From a phage: DNA of 64,000 nucleotides. Both the position numbers and the translations under genes were made by a program. Under the pieces are notes generated by a model. It was given only the letters and a program-made list of their open reading frames with translations. It was not told the origin of the DNA and ran no database searches. The DNA lies in NCBI GenBank assembly GCA_004257845.1, contig GCA_004257845.1_4800.1; one strand, given 5' to 3'. Position 1 is the first letter of the stretch; every line of letters starts with the position of its first letter. Of the stretch, positions 2,383-63,380 are shown piece after piece.

Positions 2383-4757
2383 TGAAAATTCTTGGCATAA
2401 AACTCTGGGAGAAGACGCAACCAGAAGCCGAACCAGCGGAGATGCCGCCAGGCGACCCATTGGCACCGTTTGAACGCCTTGAAAGGCGCGGCAGCGGTCA
2501 ACGCTGGGAAAGGACTGAAAGCAATCGACCGACCTTTAAAACGGTTGATGACTTCCCTTTATATGAGCCTGATATTAACGGGGACGGTGTTGCAATCATC
2601 AAAGGTCGCTCAGTAGATTCAGCAACCGTATCCAAAAAAGTTATGGATAATGCTTTGAAGAACATCAGTTCAGAAGGGCAGGTTAATCCATACACAGTAC
2701 CTATTCAGCTGCAAAACTGGTACTTGTCGCAGTCATTCATCGGCTATCAAGCTTGCGCAATTATCGCGCAGCATTGGCTGGTAAACAAGGCTTGCTCGAT
2801 GGTAGGTCGCGATGCAGTACGTAAAGGTTGGGAAGTAAAATCAAGTTCTGAATCAGAATTGTCTGTGCAGGCAAGTGAACGTCTAAAGCAAATTGATAAA
2901 GAATTTAATATCAAAGAGCACTTAGTTGAAGCCGAACGATTCAAAAATATTTTTGGTATCCGCGTCATCATATTTGATGTGCGTAGCGATGACCCAGAAT
3001 ACTACAGTAAACCTTTTAACATTGATGGTGTGACAAAGGGGTCTTATAAGGGGATCATTCAGGTTGACCCTTATTGGATGATGCCATTTCTGACGTCTGA
3101 AAACACCGCCGACCCTGCTTCACAGCACTTCTATGATCCAGAATACTGGGTGATCAGCGGCCAGCGTTATCATCGCAGCCACCTCATAATCTTGCGCAAC
3201 GATGAGCCAGCTGATATTCTCAAGCCGACTTATATTTACGGCGGCATTCCTCTGACTCAGCAGATTTATGAACGCATCTATGCCGCTGAACGTACCGCCA
3301 ACGAAGCGCCATTGCTGGCGATGTCCAAGCGCACAACGACGCTGCGGACCGACGTTGACAAGGCCATTGCCAATGAGCGGTCTTTTGCAGAACGTCTGAT
3401 GATGTGGATCAAGTACCGCGACAACTATGCGGTCAAAGTGCTTGGTCAGAAAGAAGAGATGGACCAGTTTGACATCAACTTGTCAGACTTCGACAGCATC
3501 ATCATGAACCAGTACCAGCTGGTGGCTGCAATCGCAAAAGTTCCGTCGACCAAACTTCTTGGGACTTCGCCAAAAGGCTTTAACGCCACTGGTGAATTTG
3601 AGATGGTCAGCTATCACGAAGAGTTGGAAACGTGCCAGCAACATGACCTGACAAAAATTCTCGACCGCCATTATAAAATCCTTCTCAAATCAGAAGGGGT
3701 GGAAGTCGACGTTAAGGTTGCATGGGAACCAGTCGGCTCACTTACTGCTACTCAACTTGCAGAAATCAACGACAAGCGAGCTAACACTGGCAAAACTCTC
3801 ATTGATGCTGGCGTCATTTCTCCTGATGAAGAGCGCGACCGCATCAAAGACGACAAAAACAGCGGCTACAACCGTCTGCCGGAAGACGCAGCAGAAGAAA
3901 CCCCAGGGATGTCTCCAGAGAATATGGCATTGCTTGGCAAGTCTGCTGGTGAAGTCCTGCAAGGTAAGGCCGATATTGAACAGGCGAAAGCTGATGTCGT
4001 TAAGATGGGCGGCCAGTTCTATAGCGAAACAGGTATCATGCCAGAAGGTGCCGCGCGTGGTGAGTTGGCGGAAAACCCTGACAGAGCGCCTGTCGAAATC
4101 AACATGGACGATACCGATGATGAATCAAGCCATCAGGTTGATGTCCTAACGCAGTTGAAAGAAGGTCTGGAGGGTATTTCTGATTACTACCTAAAAGAAG
4201 GTCAGGATGTGGATTTTGACCCTCAAAAAGATTCACGGTCGGTGCAACCGTCTACCCTTCCAAGCGTTAAAGGACACGTCGTCAACTTACGCCACAACGT
4301 GGGTAAAATGGACGAAGCAGCATTACCTAAGATGAAGTTGCACGGAATGATTCTTGGCATTGAGAATCCGCGCAACAGCATTCGTAGAGGAAACAGCCTT
4401 GACGGTGAATGGGCTGTGAAGATGCCGCACCATTACGGATTCATCAAGGGCACCAAGGGTGCGGACGGCGATGAAGTCGACTGCTTTGTGGGTCCAAATC
4501 TGAAGTCGCCGAAAGTCTTTATCGTGAACCAAAACGATAACTACTCTGGCGAGTTTGATGAACACAAGTGCATGCTTGGATTCGATTCAGCAGAAGAAGC
4601 GAAAGAAGCTTATCAAGCATCATTTGGGAACGGCTGGAACGGATTCGACTCAATCCACGAATTGGATGTGAACTCATTCAAGGAGTGGTTGAAGGGTGAC
4701 TGCTCTCAAGCATACGGAGCACTCAATAATCCTACTAATTCACCGAAGCAAGGTTGA
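2383..4757 (+). CDS. portal protein with C-terminal inorganic-pyrophosphatase-like domain
   Basis: Long ORF after terminase with portal-like N-terminal ~470 aa; acidic linker; C-terminal ~160 aa contains HYGFI and DGDEVDC, matching the family I pyrophosphatase signature D-[SGDN]-D-[PE]-[LIVMF]-D-[LIVMGAC]. Start set at ATG 2383 (RBS AGGTGG) rather than TTG 2349. Confidence 0.6.
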
Positions 4758-4758
4758 T

Positions 4759-5610
4759 ATGGCTTTTAAAGCTTCGAAAAAACGTGAACGCCGCTCACCC
4801 GATAGAATCGGGCGCGGCAGTCCGATAATCCCATCAAACGCTATTGCGATGGCCTACCGTCGTGAGATGAAAGGTCTTTGCTATGCGATGATTGATGACT
4901 ATCAGGCAGGAATTTCAGAGTGGCTTGAAAAGAAGCAGGTGCAGAAGTTCTTTGCGCAAGACTCTGCTGATTCAACATTCCAAACTCTTATGAAACGTCT
5001 GCAGCTGAAATGGGCAAAGGCGTTTGCTCGTGTTGGGTCGAAGATTGCCGCTGATTTTATCAAGTCGGTTGAAAAGGGCGCTACTTCTGCTACATTTGCA
5101 AGTCTTAAGTCCGCAGGCATAGAAGCGCCAAAGGCCACATATAACAAATTCGTTGAGAACACTCTTAGAACAAGCGAGACGTTCAACACGACTCTAGTGA
5201 CTAAGGTTGGCGAGGATATTCACAACAGAGTGTACGAAGCAGTCATGCTTTCGCTGACTTCGCCCGACCCAGCCCAGCAAGGCACGTCAGGCATTCAGGC
5301 GGCGCTGCGAAACGTAAAACACTTCTCTGCAAAGAGAGTCGACTTAATCGCTAAAGACCAGACAAGCAAATTGTATTGCGTTCTAAGCGATGAAAGGATG
5401 CGACAGAATGGAGTTGAAGAATTTGAATGGTCGCACTCAGGAGCAGGGAAGGAGCCGCGAATCTCTCATGAACATGTCGACGGAATGAGATTCAAACTTG
5501 ATGACAAGCGTCTATGGGAAGTGGGCGGAGAGTTGAAGTTCAAAAAGGGTGACATCGGCCCTCCTGGATGGGCGATACGCTGCAAGTGCAGAAAAATACC
5601 AATCATTTGA
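4759..5610 (+). CDS. head morphogenesis protein (MuF / SPP1 gp7-like)
   Basis: Position immediately after portal; size and sequence character typical of MuF-like minor head proteins; start at ATG 4759 abutting portal stop. Confidence 0.45.
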   Translation: MAFKASKKRERRSPDRIGRGSPIIPSNAIAMAYRREMKGLCYAMIDDYQAGISEWLEKKQVQKFFAQDSADSTFQTLMKRLQLKWAKAFARVGSKIAADFIKSVEKGATSATFASLKSAGIEAPKATYNKFVENTLRTSETFNTTLVTKVGEDIHNRVYEAVMLSLTSPDPAQQGTSGIQAALRNVKHFSAKRVDLIAKDQTSKLYCVLSDERMRQNGVEEFEWSHSGAGKEPRISHEHVDGMRFKLDDKRLWEVGGELKFKKGDIGPPGWAIRCKCRKIPII

Positions 5611-6718: not shown

Positions 6719-6994
6719 ACGTATAATGACGTATCATACGTATCAAGTAAGTTATTGTTTTCAAAAGAATCTTACGGATGATACGGATGATACGCGTTGC
6801 CGCCGTACTATATAGGAATTCAAATAAATTAATTTAAAATTATATATCTAATTTAATTTTATTTTTTTATAAACTCTTATATATGAAAAGTATCCGTATC
6901 ATCCGTATCATCCGTAGCACACCAGTGATAGCGCGGCTTATACACCGATACGGATAAAAATACGCCTCATTTTATCCGTATCATCCGTATCACA
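6719..6994. repeat. iteron/inverted-repeat element A around an AT-rich core
   Basis: CGTATAATGACGTA (6719-6733); direct CTTACGGATGATACGGATGATACGCG (6771-6796); AT-rich 6817-6890; inverted TATCCGTATCATCCGTATCATCCGTA (6891-6916) and TATCCGTATCATCCGTATCAC (6974-6994). A near-identical element occurs at 59124-59410. Confidence 0.7.
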
Positions 6995-9154: not shown

Positions 9155-10294
9155 ATGACTCGCATTAGCCAAACACACTCTCGCCTCCCAGCGAGCAAGG
9201 TGCGCCCTTTTGATATGCAATCCGTTACCGACGCGGCTGTTTCCCAGCTTGCTCGTATCGGTATTGTGTTTGATTCCGCGATTGTGCGTGATCAGATTGA
9301 GCACTTAAACCGTGCAGGCGCTTTCCGCGTAGGTGATGCCGCGTTTACTGCGCCGCAGACCACTCCGTCAATCCCGACCCCGTTGCAGTTCCTGCAGCAG
9401 TGGTTGCCTGGCTTCGTCAAAATCATGACCGCCGCTCGTAAAATCGACGAGCTGGTTGGTATTGATACCGTTGGTCAGTGGGAAGATGCAGAAATCGTTC
9501 AGGGTATCGTTGAACCAGCTGGCACCGCAGTTGAATATGGTGATTTCACCTCTATTCCTCTGGCAAGCTGGAACGTAAACTTTGAACGTCGTTCTATCGT
9601 TCGTGGCGAAATGGGCATGGCAGTTGGTATGCTGGAAGAAGGCCGCGCGTCTGCGATGCGTCTGAACTCCGCAGAAACCAAGCGCCAGCAGGCTGCTGTA
9701 TCTCTGGAAATCATGCGTAACGCAATCGGCTTCTATGGCTGGTACAACGGGAACAACCGTACATTCGGCTTCCTGAATGATCCAAATCTGCCAGCGGCGA
9801 TGACTTCCAACACCACTTCCGGCTGGGCTACTGCGACCTTCCAACAGGTGACTGCAGACATCCGTTTGATGGTTCGTCAAATTCGTGTGAACTCTCAGGA
9901 CCAGATTGATCCAGAGAAGGTTGACATGACTCTGGCACTGCCGACCAACTCTATCGATTGGCTGTCCAACACCACTGACTTCGGTATTTCTGTACGTGAC
10001 TGGATCACCCAGACTTATCCGAAGATGAAGATCAAGTCTGCACCGGAACTCAACGGCGCACTTGGCAGCGACCCGACTTTCTTGAACGTGGCATACCTGT
10101 ACGCTGATCACATCGATTCCTCAATCGATGGTTCAAGCGATGATGGTTCCGTATTCAGTCAGCTGGTTCAGACCAAGTTCATGACTCTGGGCGTTGAAAA
10201 GCGTGCTAAGAGCTACGTCGAAGACTACGCAAACGCAACAGCAGGCGTTCTGCTCAAGCGTCCTTTCGCAGTCGTCCGTATGACTGGTATTTAA
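9155..10294 (+). CDS. major capsid protein
   Basis: 379-aa ORF in canonical position after scaffold-like and decoration-like genes; RBS AGGCAGGTGA. Confidence 0.5.
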
Positions 10295-10409
10295 TTGCTG
10301 TGATTACACAGTAAAACACATGGGGCGTGGTCGAAAGGCTTCGCCCCATATCAATAGACCTCAAGGGCTGTAGGGGCTTATCTGAGGCTTATATAAATAG
10401 GACTACAAA

Positions 10410-10874
10410 ATGTCAAAATACATCGTTTCAACTATGTCTATGTCAGTAAACTACACCTTCTATACGGAAGTGAAAGAAAACCCGAATGCAAAAGCTGGTT
10501 CAGGCGCTCTTCCAAATATTCGCAAACAGATTCTAATCAAGGGCGGCGCTGGTCTTACTTCAGCAACTTCCGGCTTTGGTGAAATGGCAAAAGGCGCTGA
10601 CGGTGCACCTTTGTGGACTCCTGAAGGAATCGTCACCGTTGTAAGCGATGCAGATTTTGAGCATCTGAAAGATCATCACGTATTTAAGCAGCATCTTGAA
10701 AAAGGTTTGGTGAAAGTCGTAAATCACGACATTGTTGGCAATCACAAAGCCGTCGCTAAAGAAGTTCGCGGCATGTCAGACGACCCGTTTGCGCCTATGA
10801 CGCGCGAAACTGCTGACAAGCGCATCAAGGTGAAATTGAGCGGCGACCAAGAAGATGATTTATTCCGCGTTTAA
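10410..10874 (+). CDS. hypothetical virion protein
   Basis: ORF in head-tail joining region. Confidence 0.4.
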   Translation: MSKYIVSTMSMSVNYTFYTEVKENPNAKAGSGALPNIRKQILIKGGAGLTSATSGFGEMAKGADGAPLWTPEGIVTVVSDADFEHLKDHHVFKQHLEKGLVKVVNHDIVGNHKAVAKEVRGMSDDPFAPMTRETADKRIKVKLSGDQEDDLFRV

Positions 10875-10888
10875 ATAAGGTGAATGCC

Positions 10889-11344
10889 ATGTCATTAGAT
10901 TACGAAAAGTTCAGAATTAAATTTCCACAGTTTGCTGATCAGGTTAAATTCCCTGACACAACACTTCAAGTATTCTATGACATGGCATGTGAATTTATTG
11001 AATCACAAGACAGTCCTTGTCGTGTTTTAAATGGCAGTAAATTGGAGCTGGCATTGGAATATATGACGGCTCATCTTTTATGCATAGCCGCAGACCAACA
11101 AGTGTCTGTGTCTTCTGGTGACGGAGTTGAACAAAGCGGCTTCGTGACTGGCGCAACAATTGGTGATATCACAGTGAACAAAGTCGCGCCGCCTGCAAGT
11201 GATGGTTGGGAATACTGGCTTTCAAGCACTCCTTATGGCATGGCGCTGTGGGCGCTTCTTCAAGCACTGGCCGTTGGCGGCTTGTCATTCGGCGGTCTTC
11301 CAGAGCGTGAAGGATTCCGTAAAATTGGTGGGGTATTCTGGTGA
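10889..11344 (+). CDS. putative head-tail connector/head completion protein
   Basis: Position and size; ATG 10889 with RBS AAGGTGA. Confidence 0.3.
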   Translation: MSLDYEKFRIKFPQFADQVKFPDTTLQVFYDMACEFIESQDSPCRVLNGSKLELALEYMTAHLLCIAADQQVSVSSGDGVEQSGFVTGATIGDITVNKVAPPASDGWEYWLSSTPYGMALWALLQALAVGGLSFGGLPEREGFRKIGGVFW

Positions 11345-57933: not shown

Positions 57934-58349
57934 TACAGCGTTACGATGTTGATTATTGCACGCAGCACGCTTGCACTTGTGAAGTTGTAAAGGATGATGA
58001 AGGCGGCTATGTTGAATATGAGGACTATGAATCACTACTCAAGCTTAATGAGTCGCTAACAAAAGAGATTGAGCAATACCGCGAGCGCATCAAAGTCGCT
58101 GAAGATATTATCAAGCTTTTTAGCGAGGCTGTTGAGAAATACAAGGAGCGCAACGTACCGATTAAGGAGGAAGCGTGGACCGTGTGGTTTGGTGGCGTGA
58201 ATCCGGTGCCTGGGAAGATGGTTGAGTTTGAATTACTCAACGGTTATAAATCAAAAGGTGCTGTTCCTTCGGATAGTTTGACATGGGATAAAGTCACAAG
58301 CCCGACTGGTGCAAAGATTGTTGCTTATCGGGTCGTTAAGGAGGGGTGA
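57930..58349 (+). CDS. hypothetical protein with C-terminal W-GG-NPVPGK domain (paralogous domain)
   Basis: WTVWFGGVNPVPGKMVEF ... IVAYRVVKE vs WIEWSGGKNPVPGKKVML ... IIAYRVVEE. Confidence 0.45.
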   Translation: MIQRYDVDYCTQHACTCEVVKDDEGGYVEYEDYESLLKLNESLTKEIEQYRERIKVAEDIIKLFSEAVEKYKERNVPIKEEAWTVWFGGVNPVPGKMVEFELLNGYKSKGAVPSDSLTWDKVTSPTGAKIVAYRVVKEG

Positions 58350-58798
58350 TGGGTAAACGGCTTATCGCCGCTGGTTGGGCCATACCGAAGTGGGGCCATC
58401 GTGCGCATTACTTTGACGAAGGAGAAGTGCAAAGCCTTTGTGGTCGCGCAACATACTTCGGTGATGAGCGCGTCAGCGGCGATTACATCGACTCGCTTTT
58501 AGGCAAAGGTGATTGCAAGAAATGTCAGGATATATTAAGAGATATTCTTACGCAAAGAGGATTGCTTGAGCTTGATGAATCGGAGGAAGTAATTGAACTT
58601 AAGCTTGAAGCGAATTACCTTATTTATACGTTCAAGAACTATTACGCAACTAATATGCGCTCAAAAATGAGCGAGGAAGTAATAGAAAAGGTGTTCACCT
58701 ACAATCCGCTAAGGATGAATAAAACTAAATTGAAGAAGTTTAATATAATGTTAAGGAAAGAATTTAAAAGGCTTGGAGTGAAGAATTTTATATTTTAA
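58346..58798 (+). CDS. hypothetical protein, last gene of plus-strand early block
   Basis: ATGA overlap; followed by terminator. Confidence 0.4.
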   Translation: MMGKRLIAAGWAIPKWGHRAHYFDEGEVQSLCGRATYFGDERVSGDYIDSLLGKGDCKKCQDILRDILTQRGLLELDESEEVIELKLEANYLIYTFKNYYATNMRSKMSEEVIEKVFTYNPLRMNKTKLKKFNIMLRKEFKRLGVKNFIF

Positions 58799-58814
58799 TA
58801 GTGATTAATGTTAA

Positions 58815-58830
58815 GAGGGCCGATTGGCCC
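58815..58830 (+). terminator. intrinsic terminator
   Basis: Hairpin AGGGCCGATTGGCCCT followed by TTTTTGTTTG. Confidence 0.6.
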
Positions 58831-58840
58831 TTTTTGTTTG

Positions 58841-59060
58841 CCTGTGGAATGTGAGGCTTTATTATCGGATAAAGCGATTGATTTGTGTAAATCTATTAGA
58901 GGGTCGTGGGTAGTAAGGATTGTGACGTGAATTTTGTGTCTTGAATATGTGTGCGAATTTGGAAGAATATTGTACTGTGGTGCTGTGGGATTGGAGAGGG
59001 AATCACTAGGAATTGGAGCGTGTACCGTGGTGTGTGGTCCTGTAGGCTGCGCCGTATATG
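58841..59060 (+). other. G/T-skewed non-coding segment rich in GGA motifs (candidate structured or sponge-type RNA)
   Basis: No ORF; strong G+T excess on plus strand; about ten GGA triplets, five within GGGATTGGAGAGGGAATCACTAGGAATTGGAGCG. Confidence 0.3.
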
Positions 59061-59123
59061 GGATTGTCGCTTGAAACTAAAAAGGAGATATAGTTAGCTG
59101 GCTAACCTTACGCATAGAATTTA

Positions 59124-59410
59124 AGCGTATAATGACGTAAGATTTGGACCTATCCGTAGTTCACTCCACACACTTCTATGGTGCGCCGCGACTGGGTTCA
59201 GTGGTACATCTTACGGATGATACGGATGATACGCGTCGCCGCTATACTTTATACAACTTTGAAAAAACAATTAACTCCATTTTGAATTAATTTAAATTAA
59301 TTTTTTTCTACATCCTCATACTTATACTAAACTTATATTTATACGTATTATCCGTAAGATATAAGTAAAAACAAAGACTTGCGGCAATACGGATGATACG
59401 TCATGATACG
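59124..59410. repeat. iteron/inverted-repeat element B (second copy of element at 6719-6994)
   Basis: GCGTATAATGACGTA (59124-59138); CTTACGGATGATACGGATGATACGCGTCGCCGC (59210-59242); AT-rich core; inverted TTATCCGTAAG and ACGGATGATACGTCATGATACG. Confidence 0.7.
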
Positions 59411-59522
59411 CTTCGACCAGCCAGCAGCGGCTAAGTCATTGATTTGCATAACAAGCGGCGAAAGGGATGGATTTCTTTTATACGTATCAAACAGTACACC
59501 ACGCACCACGGTCCGCAATCCT

Positions 59523-60822
59523 ATTTGCACTATGATTTGTGTACGTTTATAGCCATAATGAACATCAATCTGCACTTGAATATAATGTCCATCCATTGTA
59601 TAATTCACACTATTAATTTGCACTATGGGATTTTGCACTATGAGTCAAGATTATGTAGCGATGCCTGAAGACTTTGAAGACCCGCGATTCGCAGAGCACA
59701 ATCAGGCTTTATTCGATGAGTTCATTGACCTTGTTATTCAGGGCCATGACATGCGCGCAGCTTTTGCACTAGTATTTGGAATGGAAGTTGCAACGGATAA
59801 CTACACTGGCCAGCGAATCCTTTGCGCACAACGCAATCCGTACTACAAAATGCGCTTCAAAAAGCGTATGGAAGAGATGCCACTCAAGGATTTGTGGAGC
59901 GTAAAAGGTGCAATTCACAATTTGGTCAAGCTTGTGCGTGATCCAGAAGTCGCGGCGTCAGCCAAGCTTAATGCTATTCGTGAACTGAATATCATCTACG
60001 GCATCACGATGATTGATGAAAACGGCAATAGTAAAATGGGCCGTTCCATGGACGATTTCTACAAGGATTTTGGAGAGGCAGCCAAAGAAGGTGAGCAATT
60101 CTCCCGCCACTAGCCAATTTGCACTATAAAACGGCCCTAGAACACATTTTCTCCACTTCTAGGGCCATCGGTAATACGACGGGGAAGGTTACAACCGTAA
60201 ACGCGTTAGAAAGTGTATTATTATAAGTCATCTTTTAGTCACTTTACGTAACAATTTACGACCTTCAACCGTCCAATCGAACGACTCCACCAGCAGATTT
60301 GCACTATAACCTAAGACGATGCGCCCTTTCTCGTTATCGACCCGCCAACAAGTCTCGAATAGCATTCGATTTGCACTATTAACTATTGCCGCAACTCGCG
60401 TAGGATAAGCGCAATTTGCACTATGGTCGTAAAGGGATAAGGTGCGACCACTTCCGATGGACAACGTAGCGATGAGAATGAGTGTATTCATAAGCCACCA
60501 ATTTGCACTATGAAAAGCGACCCCGAAGGGCCGCCATTCGATTAGATAATCTGGAAGGTGTAGGACTTGTTGCCGAACTCGAAGTTTAAGCGTCCAGCTT
60601 CCTTAAGCTTCATGCGGAAGCGAATGTGCTTGCTATCCGGTAAGCCCAGCGCGGCGAACGCTACGCGGACCGATTTGAACTCGCCTACACCCTCGACCAT
60701 GACACCGTTACGGGTAAGACGCTTTTGCGCCACTTCCTTATTATCCCAACTTTTTGCAATACCTTCGCTATTCGAACGGCGATGGGATGGAGTTCCATTT
60801 TGCACTACGCAATTTGCACTAT
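59523..60822 (+). promoter_or_regulatory. array of at least nine copies of the motif (A/T)ATTTGCACTAT, all in one orientation
   Basis: Copies read at about 59524, 59616, 59631, 60113, 60297, 60368, 60413, 60500, 60796 and 60808; variant AATTTGCAGTACACT at about 63205 and 63297. Confidence 0.55.
59640..60113 (+). CDS. hypothetical protein (157 aa; small-terminase or regulator candidate)
   Basis: ORF preceded by iteron element B and by two motif copies overlapping its start codons; helical, acidic N-terminus. Confidence 0.4.
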   Translation: MSQDYVAMPEDFEDPRFAEHNQALFDEFIDLVIQGHDMRAAFALVFGMEVATDNYTGQRILCAQRNPYYKMRFKKRMEEMPLKDLWSVKGAIHNLVKLVRDPEVAASAKLNAIRELNIIYGITMIDENGNSKMGRSMDDFYKDFGEAAKEGEQFSRH

Positions 60823-61168
60823 CGTTTAAACCGCTCTTAACGAAGGCTTCATACTCTTCGTCGGTCATCGCGTCGAGTTCTTCCTGGGTCGGCTCGGACT
60901 TTTTAACGACCGCACGCGCCTTATGCGTTTTTACATCGTTGGGCACTTCCTCGCGCGACTTCGCGTCTGGGATGGGCGACTCGTTGGACGGCTCATCGAG
61001 CGCGTTTAAGGACTCGATTAACGCTATTACGCGAGTCTCGGCGGTCCGGCGGTCCGCAAATTTTTTGATCGGCTTCGAACCGGAATTTGCATTATAAAAT
61101 GCAACGAGGTCGGCGGTCTTAGTTGCGATAACGTCGCCGCTAGTCGAGAAACGATTTAAGCTAACCAT
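60542..61168 (-). CDS. hypothetical protein (208 aa) in atypical-codon-usage island
   Basis: ORF with CpG-rich, C-ending codon usage distinct from the rest of the window. Confidence 0.4.
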   Translation of the reverse strand: MVSLNRFSTSGDVIATKTADLVAFYNANSGSKPIKKFADRRTAETRVIALIESLNALDEPSNESPIPDAKSREEVPNDVKTHKARAVVKKSEPTQEELDAMTDEEYEAFVKSGLNDSANCVVQNGTPSHRRSNSEGIAKSWDNKEVAQKRLTRNGVMVEGVGEFKSVRVAFAALGLPDSKHIRFRMKLKEAGRLNFEFGNKSYTFQII

Positions 61169-61248
61169 AATGAACTCCTATTTGTTAGGGCGCTAGGCGC
61201 GAAAGAATTTTATTAAAGCGCCGCGCACGACGCTCTAAAAATCCTCTC

Positions 61249-61533
61249 TTACGCTTCGACGAGGGAGAAGGTCTCAAATTCTTCTTCGCCCATAACGAGT
61301 AAGATGTTACCGATTTCGACCGCTTCGAAGAAGTATCCGTTAACGTTTACTTCGAAGGCTTCGCGGTCCGATTCCGGTAACGCCGCGTAAAGTTTAAAAG
61401 CCTCGGCGACCGTAACCCCACCCGCCTCGATAGTTTGGTCTACGTTCGCGGCGTAGACTTCGGATAAAATTTGTTTTACGCCGTAGTTCTCGACGATAGC
61501 GTTACGGATAGAAGAAACGTTAAGAATAGCCAT
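61249..61533 (-). CDS. small protein, paralog family member A
   Basis: Paralog of 62167-62457 product; preceded on minus strand by conserved promoter and 5'UTR hairpin with RBS AGGAG. Confidence 0.5.
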   Translation of the reverse strand: MAILNVSSIRNAIVENYGVKQILSEVYAANVDQTIEAGGVTVAEAFKLYAALPESDREAFEVNVNGYFFEAVEIGNILLVMGEEEFETFSLVEA

Positions 61534-61612
61534 TTTAAACTCCTAGTTGGGAGAGGCGTTAACGACCTATTCGTTAACTCATCCCGTCCCGATATGAGTA
61601 CATTATAATATA
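61534..61612 (-). promoter_or_regulatory. conserved promoter plus structured 5'UTR, copy A
   Basis: Minus-strand reading: GTGCTTTACT-16-TATAAT, TATCGGGACGGG, hairpin GTTAACGA-ATAGG-TCGTTAAC, CCAACTAGGAG RBS. Confidence 0.5.
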
Positions 61613-61644
61613 GTGTAGAAAAAAGTAAAGCACTTTTTCGATAA

Positions 61645-61673
61645 AGATGAGATAAATTATTTTATCTTTTTTC
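61645..61673 (+). terminator. AT-rich hairpin with T-run between divergent promoters
   Basis: AGATAAATTATTTTATCTTTTTT; weak stem. Confidence 0.25.
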
Positions 61674-61757
61674 TTTACTTCTTCGTACACTCGCGTATAC
61701 TTGTTTATATCGAGACGGGCGATGACCCTTTCTTTTACTACCATCGGGAGTTTTATT
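61674..61757 (+). promoter_or_regulatory. promoter (TTTACT-16-TATACT) and 5'UTR for 61758 gene
   Basis: Shares GTGCTTTACTTCTTCGTACACT and TTTATATCGAGACGGG with the other two copies. Confidence 0.45.
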
Positions 61758-62060
61758 ATGGCTACTTTAATTTCTTCTCTTCTTACTTACGACGAAGACC
61801 GCTTAACCGTCGCTTCTCTTCTTAAAGCCGTTAACGCAGAATTAGACGGGACCGCTATTAAGGTCCGCGCGTTCGCCTTCGTCGGCCTTTCCTTCGACGA
61901 TATGAAGTACGTCGAACGTAGCGCCATCCGCTTCGCGAAGACCGACGACGAAGCCGTTACCCTTATCGAAACCGTAACGCCGCGCGGCGAAGCGCTAATT
62001 ATCGTCGAGTATCTCGATATAGAAGGCTATAAAGCTTATAAACATTTTATCGCAAAATAA
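61758..62060 (+). CDS. hypothetical small protein (100 aa)
   Basis: RBS GGGAG; Leu codons almost exclusively CTT/TTA, unlike the rest of the window. Confidence 0.45.
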   Translation: MATLISSLLTYDEDRLTVASLLKAVNAELDGTAIKVRAFAFVGLSFDDMKYVERSAIRFAKTDDEAVTLIETVTPRGEALIIVEYLDIEGYKAYKHFIAK

Positions 62061-62070
62061 CGAAAAGTGC

Positions 62071-62166
62071 TTTACTTCTTCGTACACTAAGACTATAATG
62101 TTTTATATCGAGAGGGGATGAGGTAGCGAATAGGTCGCTACCCGCCCGACCAACTAGGAGATTATT
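62071..62166 (+). promoter_or_regulatory. conserved promoter plus structured 5'UTR, copy B
   Basis: TTTACT (62071-62076) -17- TATAAT (62094-62099); TATATCGAGAGGGG; hairpin GGTAGCGA-ATAGG-TCGCTACC (62122-62142); CCAACTAGGAG RBS. Confidence 0.55.
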
Positions 62167-62457
62167 ATGATTACTTTAGCCGCTATCCGTTCCGCTCGCG
62201 TCGAGACTTCCGAAAACTCTAACGTATTTGGCGAAACCTTAGAGAGCGTTTATCTCTCTAACGTAGACGCAACTATCGAATCTATTTATGAGCCGATCAA
62301 CTTCCTCGACCTTTACAAGTATCGCGATGAGGACATCGTATCTTGCCGCGTAACCATCAACGGCTTCGTCTATACGATTACCGAAATCGGCGGCGAATAT
62401 CTCGCGGTCCCGCAACTCGGCGGCGAAGTAACTTTCTTTAAAATCGTAAGCCTGTAA
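62167..62457 (+). CDS. small protein, paralog family member B
   Basis: Alignable with 61249-61533 product (SxYxxNVDxTIE ... VxxNGxxxxxxEIG). Confidence 0.5.
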   Translation: MITLAAIRSARVETSENSNVFGETLESVYLSNVDATIESIYEPINFLDLYKYRDEDIVSCRVTINGFVYTITEIGGEYLAVPQLGGEVTFFKIVSL

Positions 62458-62468
62458 GGAGAAGGAAG

Positions 62469-62678
62469 ATGACTAATATGAATAATTCTCTTAACGCGCG
62501 CGCCCATCGTACCGCCGTAATCGATATGTTCCGCGAGCTTAAGGAATTATGCGATAATATGAACGCGATGTTATCCATCGGCGGCTGGGGATACGAAGAA
62601 GAGGTTAAATACGCGGTTATGCGTCGCCGTCGCGATAACGTCCTTGGGCAAATTAAACGCGCCGGATTATTCCTTTAA
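62469..62678 (+). CDS. hypothetical small protein (69 aa)
   Basis: RBS GGAGAAGGA; followed by terminator. Confidence 0.4.
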   Translation: MTNMNNSLNARAHRTAVIDMFRELKELCDNMNAMLSIGGWGYEEEVKYAVMRRRRDNVLGQIKRAGLFL

Positions 62679-62704
62679 TTATAATTACCAACAGTTACTA
62701 ATAG

Positions 62705-62722
62705 GCCGCGCTTAGTCGCGGC
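62705..62722 (+). terminator. intrinsic terminator
   Basis: GCCGCGCTTAGTCGCGGC followed by TTTTCTTC. Confidence 0.55.
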
Positions 62723-62739
62723 TTTTCTTCGCCCCTATC

Positions 62740-63380
62740 TCGATGCGCTTCTCCGCGAAAACTCCTTTATCCTTCCCTTCGTCGTCGCATAATCTTCGTC
62801 GAGATGCTCCTTAGTTCGTATAACGGGTATTACGTTAAATGGAGAACATCGCGTAAGTCCTTGTTTTATATAGACACCTATATCGGACCGTTAGGGCGGG
62901 TCGCGTAAGTCGTTGTTTTATAAAGGCGCAAAACTTTCCCTTCGTTCCGAACTAAAACGAGGAATATGCCGACCCTTCGTCCGAAAATAGTACGCATGCG
63001 AAATTACATGCATCTCGAATAATTCCCACCGATATTATCCTACAAGCAATCATTCTCTTTCGAATCATTATGCTTCATATTATTATGCGTCGAATCATTC
63101 GCTTTCGAATTGTAACGCTGGAAACTGTAACGGCGATTGATTATTGCGTTCGTGTGGTTTTTAGGGCATGGGTCTTTTGGTGCGTTTTGGTACTTGATGA
63201 AATTTGCAGTACACTAATCAAAATACGACACATTTGGTCCACTAACTTTTCAAAGAAAAAGTCCTGGACAGTACCGTACTATTTTGTACCCACAGGAAAT
63301 TTGCAGTACACTCCTGCGCGCCAGGCAAAATAAAGGGCCGCACTAAGCGACCCACGATTCACGGTTAAGGCAACATCCAC
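62740..63380. repeat. repeat-rich non-coding region
   Basis: Direct repeats CGCGTAAGTC(C/G)TTGTTTTATA (about 62853 and 62903), TCGAATCATT x3, TGTAACG x2, AAATTTGCAGTACACT x2; no convincing ORF. Confidence 0.5.

Follow-up and report, generated by a model that had tools for sequence, protein, structure and literature searches.

The locus described here is a dense, one-directional array of a short word with the 9-nucleotide core TTTGCACTA, which occupies 1.3 kb of a 64,000-nucleotide stretch of phage DNA (contig GCA_004257845.1_4800.1 of assembly GCA_004257845.1; this whole stretch is termed the window). The window region is 90–96% identical to 29 Escherichia and Shigella myoviruses of the genus Wifcevirus, and the window is assigned to an E. 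coli myovirus of that genus. The array is laid over the following genes and promoter matches.

59559..59604, plus strand: a pair of overlapping promoter matches ahead of terS, sigma-70-like by consensus match only
59640..60113, plus strand: terS, small terminase subunit of 157 aa (7UXE match, phrog_4783, Mansfield annotation)
60228..60491, minus strand: ORF87, a gene in which three motif copies read as S-A-N tripeptides
60542..61168, minus strand: ORF208, a conserved protein (phrog_4730) with two exact and two degenerate motif copies

The terS product matches the solved ‘Small terminase’ 7UXE over residues 3–147 with E=7e-34, and on this homology 59640–60113 encodes a genuine small terminase. 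Entry 7UXE holds 10 chains, consistent with the decameric TerS of phage E217 (PMC9611059), while a single-sequence AlphaFold model of the TerS of this phage reached a pLDDT of 50 and was too poor for use. The large-subunit gene terL lies about 9 kb from terS (9484–10911 in the closely related Mansfield genome), and terS and terL of E217 are also far apart (PMC9611059).

Scanning of the 64-kb window recovered 11 exact copies of TTTGCACTA, all on the plus strand and within 59524–60821, and zero copies of its reverse complement. They are given below with two degenerate copies; the fractions count exact TTTGCACTA at the site among 16 Wifcevirus genomes, or the genomes carrying the degenerate form.

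59524..59532, plus strand: copy 1, exact in this genome only; TCAGCACTA or similar in relatives
59617..59625, plus strand: copy 2, directly 3' of the sigma-70-like terS promoter; 16/16
59632..59640, plus strand: copy 3, whose last letter, A at 59640, opens the terS start codon and is followed by TG; 16/16
59763..59771, plus strand: copy 4, within terS, coding F-A-L; 16/16; positional counterpart CCGCACTAC in the terS of phage Kyle
60118..60126, plus strand: copy 5, 5 nt past the terS stop, with near-Chi CCACTAGC before and a hairpin after; 15/16
60298..60306, plus strand: copy 6, within ORF87 and antisense to it, with the Chi complement CCACCAGC (60287–60294) directly before; 11/16 exact, TTCGCACTA in 5/16
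60370..60378, plus strand: copy 7, within ORF87, N-S-A-N on the opposite strand; 14/16; positional counterpart in Kyle gp2
60415..60423, plus strand: copy 8, within ORF87; 15/16
60502..60510, plus strand: copy 9, between ORF87 and ORF208, adjoining a terminator-like hairpin, CCACCA before; 16/16
60753..60761, plus strand: degenerate copy TTTGCAATA; 13/16
60799..60807, plus strand: copy 10, within ORF208, in a 7-residue insertion not in the Kyle homolog; 13/16
60813..60821, plus strand: copy 11, within ORF208, same 7-residue insertion as copy 10; 12/16
61086..61094, plus strand: degenerate copy TTTGCATTA; 11/16

The core is the top-ranked 9-mer by frequency in the whole window; under a first-order Markov model, 0.38 copies would be expected on each strand of the 64 kb, and 0.008 in a stretch of 1.3 kb. 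When the longer 11-mer ATTTGCACTAT was counted with at most one mismatch, 10 matches were obtained against 1.79 expected, every one on the plus strand within 59523–61095, and 0 of 100 shuffled sequences attained that number. The one-orientation array reported in the initial annotation is thereby borne out (11/11 exact cores on the plus strand within 1.3 kb), and its proposal of a motif count with shuffled controls returned a clear excess. Its nine copies hold for the 10-mer TTTGCACTAT, which has 9 sites, and not for the strict 13-mer (A/T)ATTTGCACTAT(G/A), which only 5 sites fit. Likewise, the spacing is irregular as described, but the full range from copy to copy is 14–355 bp, wider than the 45–90 bp noted there, and helical phasing was not found. 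The exclusion of CRISPR stands, as the word measures 9–13 nt against repeats of 24–48 nt, its copies are irregularly spaced and some of them fall within protein-coding genes. Overlap with start codons through a terminal ATG occurs at terS only (59640, or the alternative start 59625); elsewhere it involves tiny open reading frames. The motif was not found outside the array, either in the window or in Mansfield 6000–30000, which stood for the part of the genome beyond it.

Relative to the genes, the word runs in the sense direction in terS and in the antisense direction in both ORF87 and ORF208, and some copies are intergenic; six exact copies lie within, and antisense to, leftward or convergent genes. 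The polarity of the array thus follows the chromosome and not the genes or their transcription, which suggests a DNA-level process directed along the chromosome. A coding artefact was ruled out, given that the copies fall in three genes, in differing frames and strands, in intergenic DNA and in an inserted linker of ORF208. An RNA-level element was also ruled out, since the terS mRNA would carry the word itself and the leftward mRNAs its complement, and Rfam gave no hit (best E=0.77, below threshold). To our knowledge, the word matches neither host-factor sites nor the EcoKI recognition site.

ORF87 is, on its pattern of diversity, a real gene: the values at codon positions 1, 2 and 3 are 0.006, 0.017 and 0.079, peaking at the third position, and homologs exist in Pantoea phage Kyle (E=4e-12) and in the metagenome contig L183; its N-terminus is signal-peptide-like. 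ORF208 is conserved (Kyle 49%, a Pbunavirus C-terminal domain 51%, and others), and Pfam, PHROGs and a large protein search returned no function or domain for it. Published mass spectrometry reports its expression (PMC7048862), and the protein (vB_Eco4M-7_19) tolerates a C-terminal tag in published work. The motif also shapes the protein sequence, as the segment D-S-A-N-C-V-V-Q-N of ORF208 lies in the 7-residue insertion missing from Kyle.

The orientation and placement of the copies bear directly upon a promoter reading, in which they would be phage-specific promoters with an SP6/T7-like core CACTAT or activator sites akin to the T4 MotA box. CACTAT does recall a portion of the T7/SP6 promoter core; TTTGCACTA, for its part, agrees with the MotA box TTTGCTTTA at 7/9 positions. 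However, only about 13 nt are conserved, no partner element stands at −35/−10 distance, six exact copies oppose the gene that contains them, and the motif is confined to 1.3 kb and missing from the remaining ~64 kb of genome with most of the operons. The annotation of Mansfield 1–68120 lists no gene for an RNA polymerase, a sigma factor or a MotA-like protein, and the predicted sigma-70-like promoters overlap no motif copy, neither those before terS nor three further ones in the terminal repeat described below (61629–61602, 61674–61701 and 62071–62099). The promoter option of the initial annotation was therefore discarded as exceedingly improbable, on grounds of geometry, orientation, an annotation without polymerase or sigma factor, and confinement to 1.3 kb.

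Its operator option fared somewhat differently. Here the copies would be operators or roadblocks for a phage-encoded DNA-binding regulator, shutting off terS and keeping apart the converging transcription of terS and of the leftward operon. Two copies (59617 and 59632) do lie directly downstream of the sigma-70-like terS promoter, over the 5' untranslated region and start codon, and copies 60118 and 60502 abut hairpin terminators; several small uncharacterised proteins are encoded in the terminal repeat, one of them annotated as ‘transcriptional regulator’ in phage F13. The other copies are not beside the promoter, most being inside gene bodies and far from promoters, and the terS start of Kyle carries none. 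Asymmetric one-way sites over 1.3 kb are atypical of repressors, and searches of the neighbouring proteins turned up no DNA-binding domain, so that the operator option is regarded as very unlikely.

Comparison among genomes was used to view the array beyond a single sequence. Exact cores are kept in 16/16 genomes at four sites, in 14–15/16 at three and in 11–13/16 at three, the first copy being found in this genome only, and non-coding motif columns are about 13-fold less variable than those outside (0.004 versus 0.054; permutation p=0.028). Outside the genus, Pantoea phage Kyle, whose TerS is 43% identical and whose terminal repeat is 3,603 bp, carries 9 copies of T[T/C]GCACTA where 0.28 are expected, and 14 copies of GCACTA with 0 in reverse within 477–1483 bp of its left end. 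The contig L183 (TerS 52% identical) likewise has 9 copies of GCACTA and 0 in reverse between terS and the end of its ORF208 homolog. The arrays of Kyle and L183 share the consensus, the one-way orientation and the location of the Wifcevirus array, and most of their positions are different; about four correspond between lineages, namely inside terS, just past terS, at the ORF87 N-S-A-N codons and just before the ORF208 stop. Such turnover of sites, with number, orientation and location kept, points to selection on the array itself. The consensus common to the three lineages is the asymmetric C-A-A-T-T-T-G-C-A-C-T-A-Y (CAATTTGCACTAY), of which about 13 nt are conserved.

The array was not found in about 27 other terS relatives, which comprise Pbunavirus, Myosmarvirus, Carpasinavirus, Bcepfunavirus, many metagenomic contigs and L184 (45% identical). 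A paired-motif scan of IMG/VR recovered true arrays in wifceviruses only; its other hits were rejected as coding repeats or unrelated tandem repeats without terS, ORF208 or ORF87 homologs. The notion that each terS relative has an array of its own was mostly not borne out, as the candidates in XcP1, Maja, L046, L047 and others proved to be tandem repeats or ribosome-binding-site contexts; Pa193 gave no candidate array word, and Hera has only a triplicated terminator-like element and Chi. In the literature found on these phages the array is not described, and a full-text search for the word gave no match from phage biology.

The position of the array within the genome can be deciphered from its relatives. 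A direct terminal repeat (DTR) of 3,673 bp was determined by PhageTerm for Mansfield (PMC6753283), and repeats of ~3.7 kb for WFC and WFH (PMC6563267) and of 3,533 bp for Ro157lw (PMC6454146) are on record. With the Mansfield and WFC ends mapped onto the window, the following features surround the array.

59205..59363, no strand: inverted repeats of TACGGATGATACG type, with arms 59205–59227 and 59341–59363 around an AT-rich centre that holds the left terminus 59279
59279..63258, no strand: DTR, its ends mapped from Mansfield and both WFC repeat copies
63199..63213, plus strand: variant AAATTTGCAGTACAC, beside the DTR right ends
63296..63310, plus strand: second copy of variant AAATTTGCAGTACAC, just past the DTR right end

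WFC and Mansfield agree on the left end at 59279, and the right end falls between ~63178 (Mansfield) and 63258 (WFC). The array accordingly takes up positions 245–1544 of a ~3.9-kb DTR, with its first copy 245 bp inside the left end. The two AAATTTGCAGTACAC variants differ from the array word by two mismatches, share the array orientation, stand 97 bp apart and are kept in most wifceviruses; both come after the right end of Mansfield (~63178; 26 nt after), and one lies on each side of that of WFC (63258). The inverted-repeat element 59205..59363 is a candidate cleavage or regulatory element. The terminus of Kyle sits in a similar inverted-repeat structure made from another word, ATATCCGAA, and the equivalent in L183 is built from ACGAACGAA.

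Altogether, we infer that the array serves packaging as a set of dispersed, polar sites that the small terminase TerS recognises and binds, an interpretation to which we would give about an even chance and which is the best supported of those considered. In this proposal the small terminase, a ring of probably about ten subunits, would bind the repeated asymmetric ~13-bp sites CAATTTGCACTAY on concatemeric DNA, the candidate target word of TerS being CAATTTGCACTAT. Such binding would mark the concatemer junction and recruit TerL, which would generate the left end by cutting at 59279, within the AT-rich stretch that the inverted repeats enclose, and the shared direction of the sites would set the direction of translocation, rightward into the genome. 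The two weaker AAATTTGCAGTACAC sites beside the right boundary may help to position the terminating cut. The pac-array option of the initial annotation is thus carried forward as far as terS and the location of the array are concerned, with the binding of TerS as its putative part.

Several lines of evidence favour a packaging signal, among them the excess and polarity of the copies, the selection on the array seen between lineages and the AAATTTGCAGTACAC pair by the right end. The order of elements in this phage, a symmetric element with the left end, then the polar array and terS, supports it, and pac sites are situated in or beside terS in P22, SPP1 and P1 (PMC9611059). The TerS itself offers circumstantial support. 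Its DNA-binding helix-turn-helix is in the N-terminal half (PMC9611059), and a Glu before the conserved N-P-Y-Y of that half is present in 27/27 aligned array-less terS products, plus L184 and L193; the exceptions are L009 with Asp and the distant L047 with another residue, and 2 rows were unscorable. The three array-bearing lineages have Gln64 (this phage), Arg (Kyle) and Lys (L183) at that position. The match between 10–11 strong sites and the decameric TerS of E217 (PMC9611059) is suggestive only.

Certain observations weigh against this interpretation. Within the genus, the motif columns are as diverse as the background (0.049 versus 0.048), though a segment that has been replaced in three genomes inflates the overall motif-column figure, and the 16 genomes are 92–97% identical over the region. 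The DTR ends of this genome are taken from relatives, 92–97% identical over the array region. As the three array lineages share ORF87 and may be one clade, the residue correlation in TerS may represent a single event. In vitro, the homologous TerS of E217 did not bind DNA to any appreciable extent (PMC9611059). The array covers 1.3 kb, irregular and unphased, whereas known TerS sites cover tens to ~300 bp, so that it lacks their compactness, and no characterised pac or cosB site has a geometry of this kind. In myosmarviruses a terminal repeat of similar size (~3.56 kb) and a homologous TerS occur without the array (PMC6753285), which means that the array is not required for such a packaging mode. 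For the same reason, the array as a marker of terminal-repeat packaging was ruled out (PMC6753285, PMC6588376).

Among known systems, the nearest in gene context is cosB of lambda, with its sites R1–R3 for gpNu1. Both have a left end followed by repeated small-terminase sites (putative in this phage) in the packaged DNA and then terS, as in the order cosN-cosB-Nu1. A partly symmetric element at the cut is common to both as well, and the sites define the direction of packaging in lambda as they would in this phage. Lambda, however, has three 16-bp sites of mixed orientation together with an IHF site in ~120 bp, and 12-nt cohesive ends, in contrast to the 11–13 co-oriented sites over 1.3 kb and three genes, and the ~3.9-kb DTR, of this phage. 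The headful pac sites (hexamer clusters of P1 pac, the pacL/pacR boxes of SPP1 and P22 pac in gene 3) are similar in placing short repeated words in or beside terS, and in the inheritance of the cis site along with its recognition protein. They differ in spanning 22 to ~300 bp and in serving circularly permuted headful packaging, this phage having fixed ends; headful relatives of the genus Pbunavirus (PMC12345254) are without the array.

Chi for RecBCD, KOPS for FtsK and SRS for SpoIIIE provide the other comparison. Each is a short, asymmetric, one-way word, irregularly spaced over coding and non-coding DNA, that directs a DNA motor, and the array word is physically interleaved with Chi in relatives; these words are genome-wide and host-encoded, unlike the array word, which keeps to 1.3 kb near one end of a phage genome. 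By analogy, the array may function like cosB or pac in position and gene context, with a polar scattered layout nearer to Chi and KOPS. A bolder form of the packaging proposal, which we consider unlikely, would have the terminase ring read a dispersed KOPS/Chi-like polar word, choosing the junction and packaging direction, with the word evolutionarily coupled to Chi so that the same 1.5 kb also handles the RecBCD end.

In T7 and T5 the SRL/SRR heptamer arrays and the injection-stop-signal repeats, respectively, are short repeats at DTRs with suspected packaging or ejection roles. They are unlike the array in sequence, geometry and position, and we know of no T7 or T5 terminal repeat cluster that surrounds terS.

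The association with Chi opens an explanation of its own, namely a RecBCD-linked signal for end protection or recombination, in which the motif would act with Chi, for instance as a site for a phage or host factor that modulates RecBCD at the left end, or by promoting RecA-mediated invasion of the DTR to form concatemers. In relatives, Chi is clustered in the same 1–2 kb, on the strand ending 3' at the left end. Near terS, Kyle has 10 Chi sites against 0.08 expected, L183 has 7/8, Hera 4 and TropicalSun 5, with clusters spanning 255–1979 at the Kyle locus (L003), 1625–3322 in L183, 3737–4840 at the Hera locus (L005) and 4487–4999 at locus L006; over the first nine loci, 26/26 Chi sites share that strand, in the orientation that RecBCD would recognise if it entered from the left end. 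The motif is co-oriented with Chi, and Chi or near-Chi (CCAC[C/T]A) comes directly before 3/11 copies (p ~7.5e-4) and before several in Kyle. The single true Chi in this DTR (60287–60294, minus strand) abuts the copy at 60298, with near-Chi before 60118 and 60502. Nevertheless, the motif is unrelated in sequence to E. coli Chi (GCTGGTGG), and no candidate binding protein was identified. Wifceviruses have kept the motif with one Chi and myosmarviruses have Chi clusters without the motif, so that the two elements are separable, and a signal of this kind appears distinctly unlikely.

A role in replication was also weighed, the copies then being strand-specific recognition or priming sites, or iterons, for phage replication proteins such as RSF1010 RepB'-like primases and helicases, giving one-way synthesis near the genome end. 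RepB-type primases are annotated, their plasmid relatives use specific single-strand initiation (ssi) sites, and in relatives the primase and helicase genes are directly upstream of terS; an AT-rich region flanked by inverted repeats lies ~180 bp upstream of the array, the array coincides with the cumulative GC skew peak, and origins may sit inside coding genes, as with the lambda ori in O. Even so, irregular and unphased spacing of 14–355 bp is unlike iterons, the motif lacks the hairpin of ssi sites, the flanking gene is terS and not an initiator, and the skew peak also matches the switch in gene orientation. Pbunaviruses and myosmarviruses share these replication genes and lack the array. 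We hold a replication element to be quite unlikely.

The question touched by the packaging proposal is how long-DTR phages (T5-like, Wifcevirus, Kylevirus, Myosmarvirus) pick out their DNA and position two exact cuts several kilobases from each other. The mechanism that generates long terminal repeats has been called unknown (PMC6454146), and the reading of sequence by ring-shaped small terminases is still debated (PMC9611059). The array offers a concrete and readily mutable candidate signal, with a 13-bp consensus, three natural lineages and a solved homologous TerS structure. A close relative, vB_Eco4M-7, can already be rebuilt from synthetic fragments (PMC11074155), which makes the packaging hypothesis directly testable. 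Should the bolder form be true, it would supply the missing cis element for long-terminal-repeat formation. Wifceviruses are used as anti-O157 phages and engineered reporters, for which a packaging signal matters to engineering and transduction risk. The oriented Chi clusters of the relatives offer an independent starting point for asking how the ends of linear phage DNA deal with RecBCD.

Further features of the terminal region were observed in passing. Direct and inverted TACGGATGATACG copies surround an AT-rich centre at two places, 6773–6992 and 59205–59401, the former in the gap that precedes the genes for head protease and capsid; this twin element could be a terminase cleavage context or a shared late-promoter or regulator module. 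Just inside the DTR right end, at 63032–63119, a cluster of CGAATCATT-type repeats is present, with AATGATT-type repeats as its equivalent in Kyle (L003 3447–3591). The DTR also includes two paralogous genes of ~95 aa in inverted arrangement (61249–61533, minus strand, and 62167–62457, plus strand), whose upstream regions form a matching 65-nt inverted repeat (61531–61595 / 62105–62169), each with a sigma-70-like promoter TTTACT...TATAAT, and the pair looks like a duplicated early-gene cassette. In the Serratia phage Hera, three AAAAAATAAGCATGCTTTGTAT copies are interleaved with Chi and Chi-like CACCAGCA just downstream of terS (L005 4524–4650), and may be terminator-like hairpins or a myosmarvirus-specific signal. 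Upstream of the DTR, the non-coding stretch 58800–59100 is strongly G/T-rich on the plus strand (GC skew +0.32 over 58001–59000), and a comparable switch from G/T-rich to C/A-rich is seen upstream of terS in Hera.

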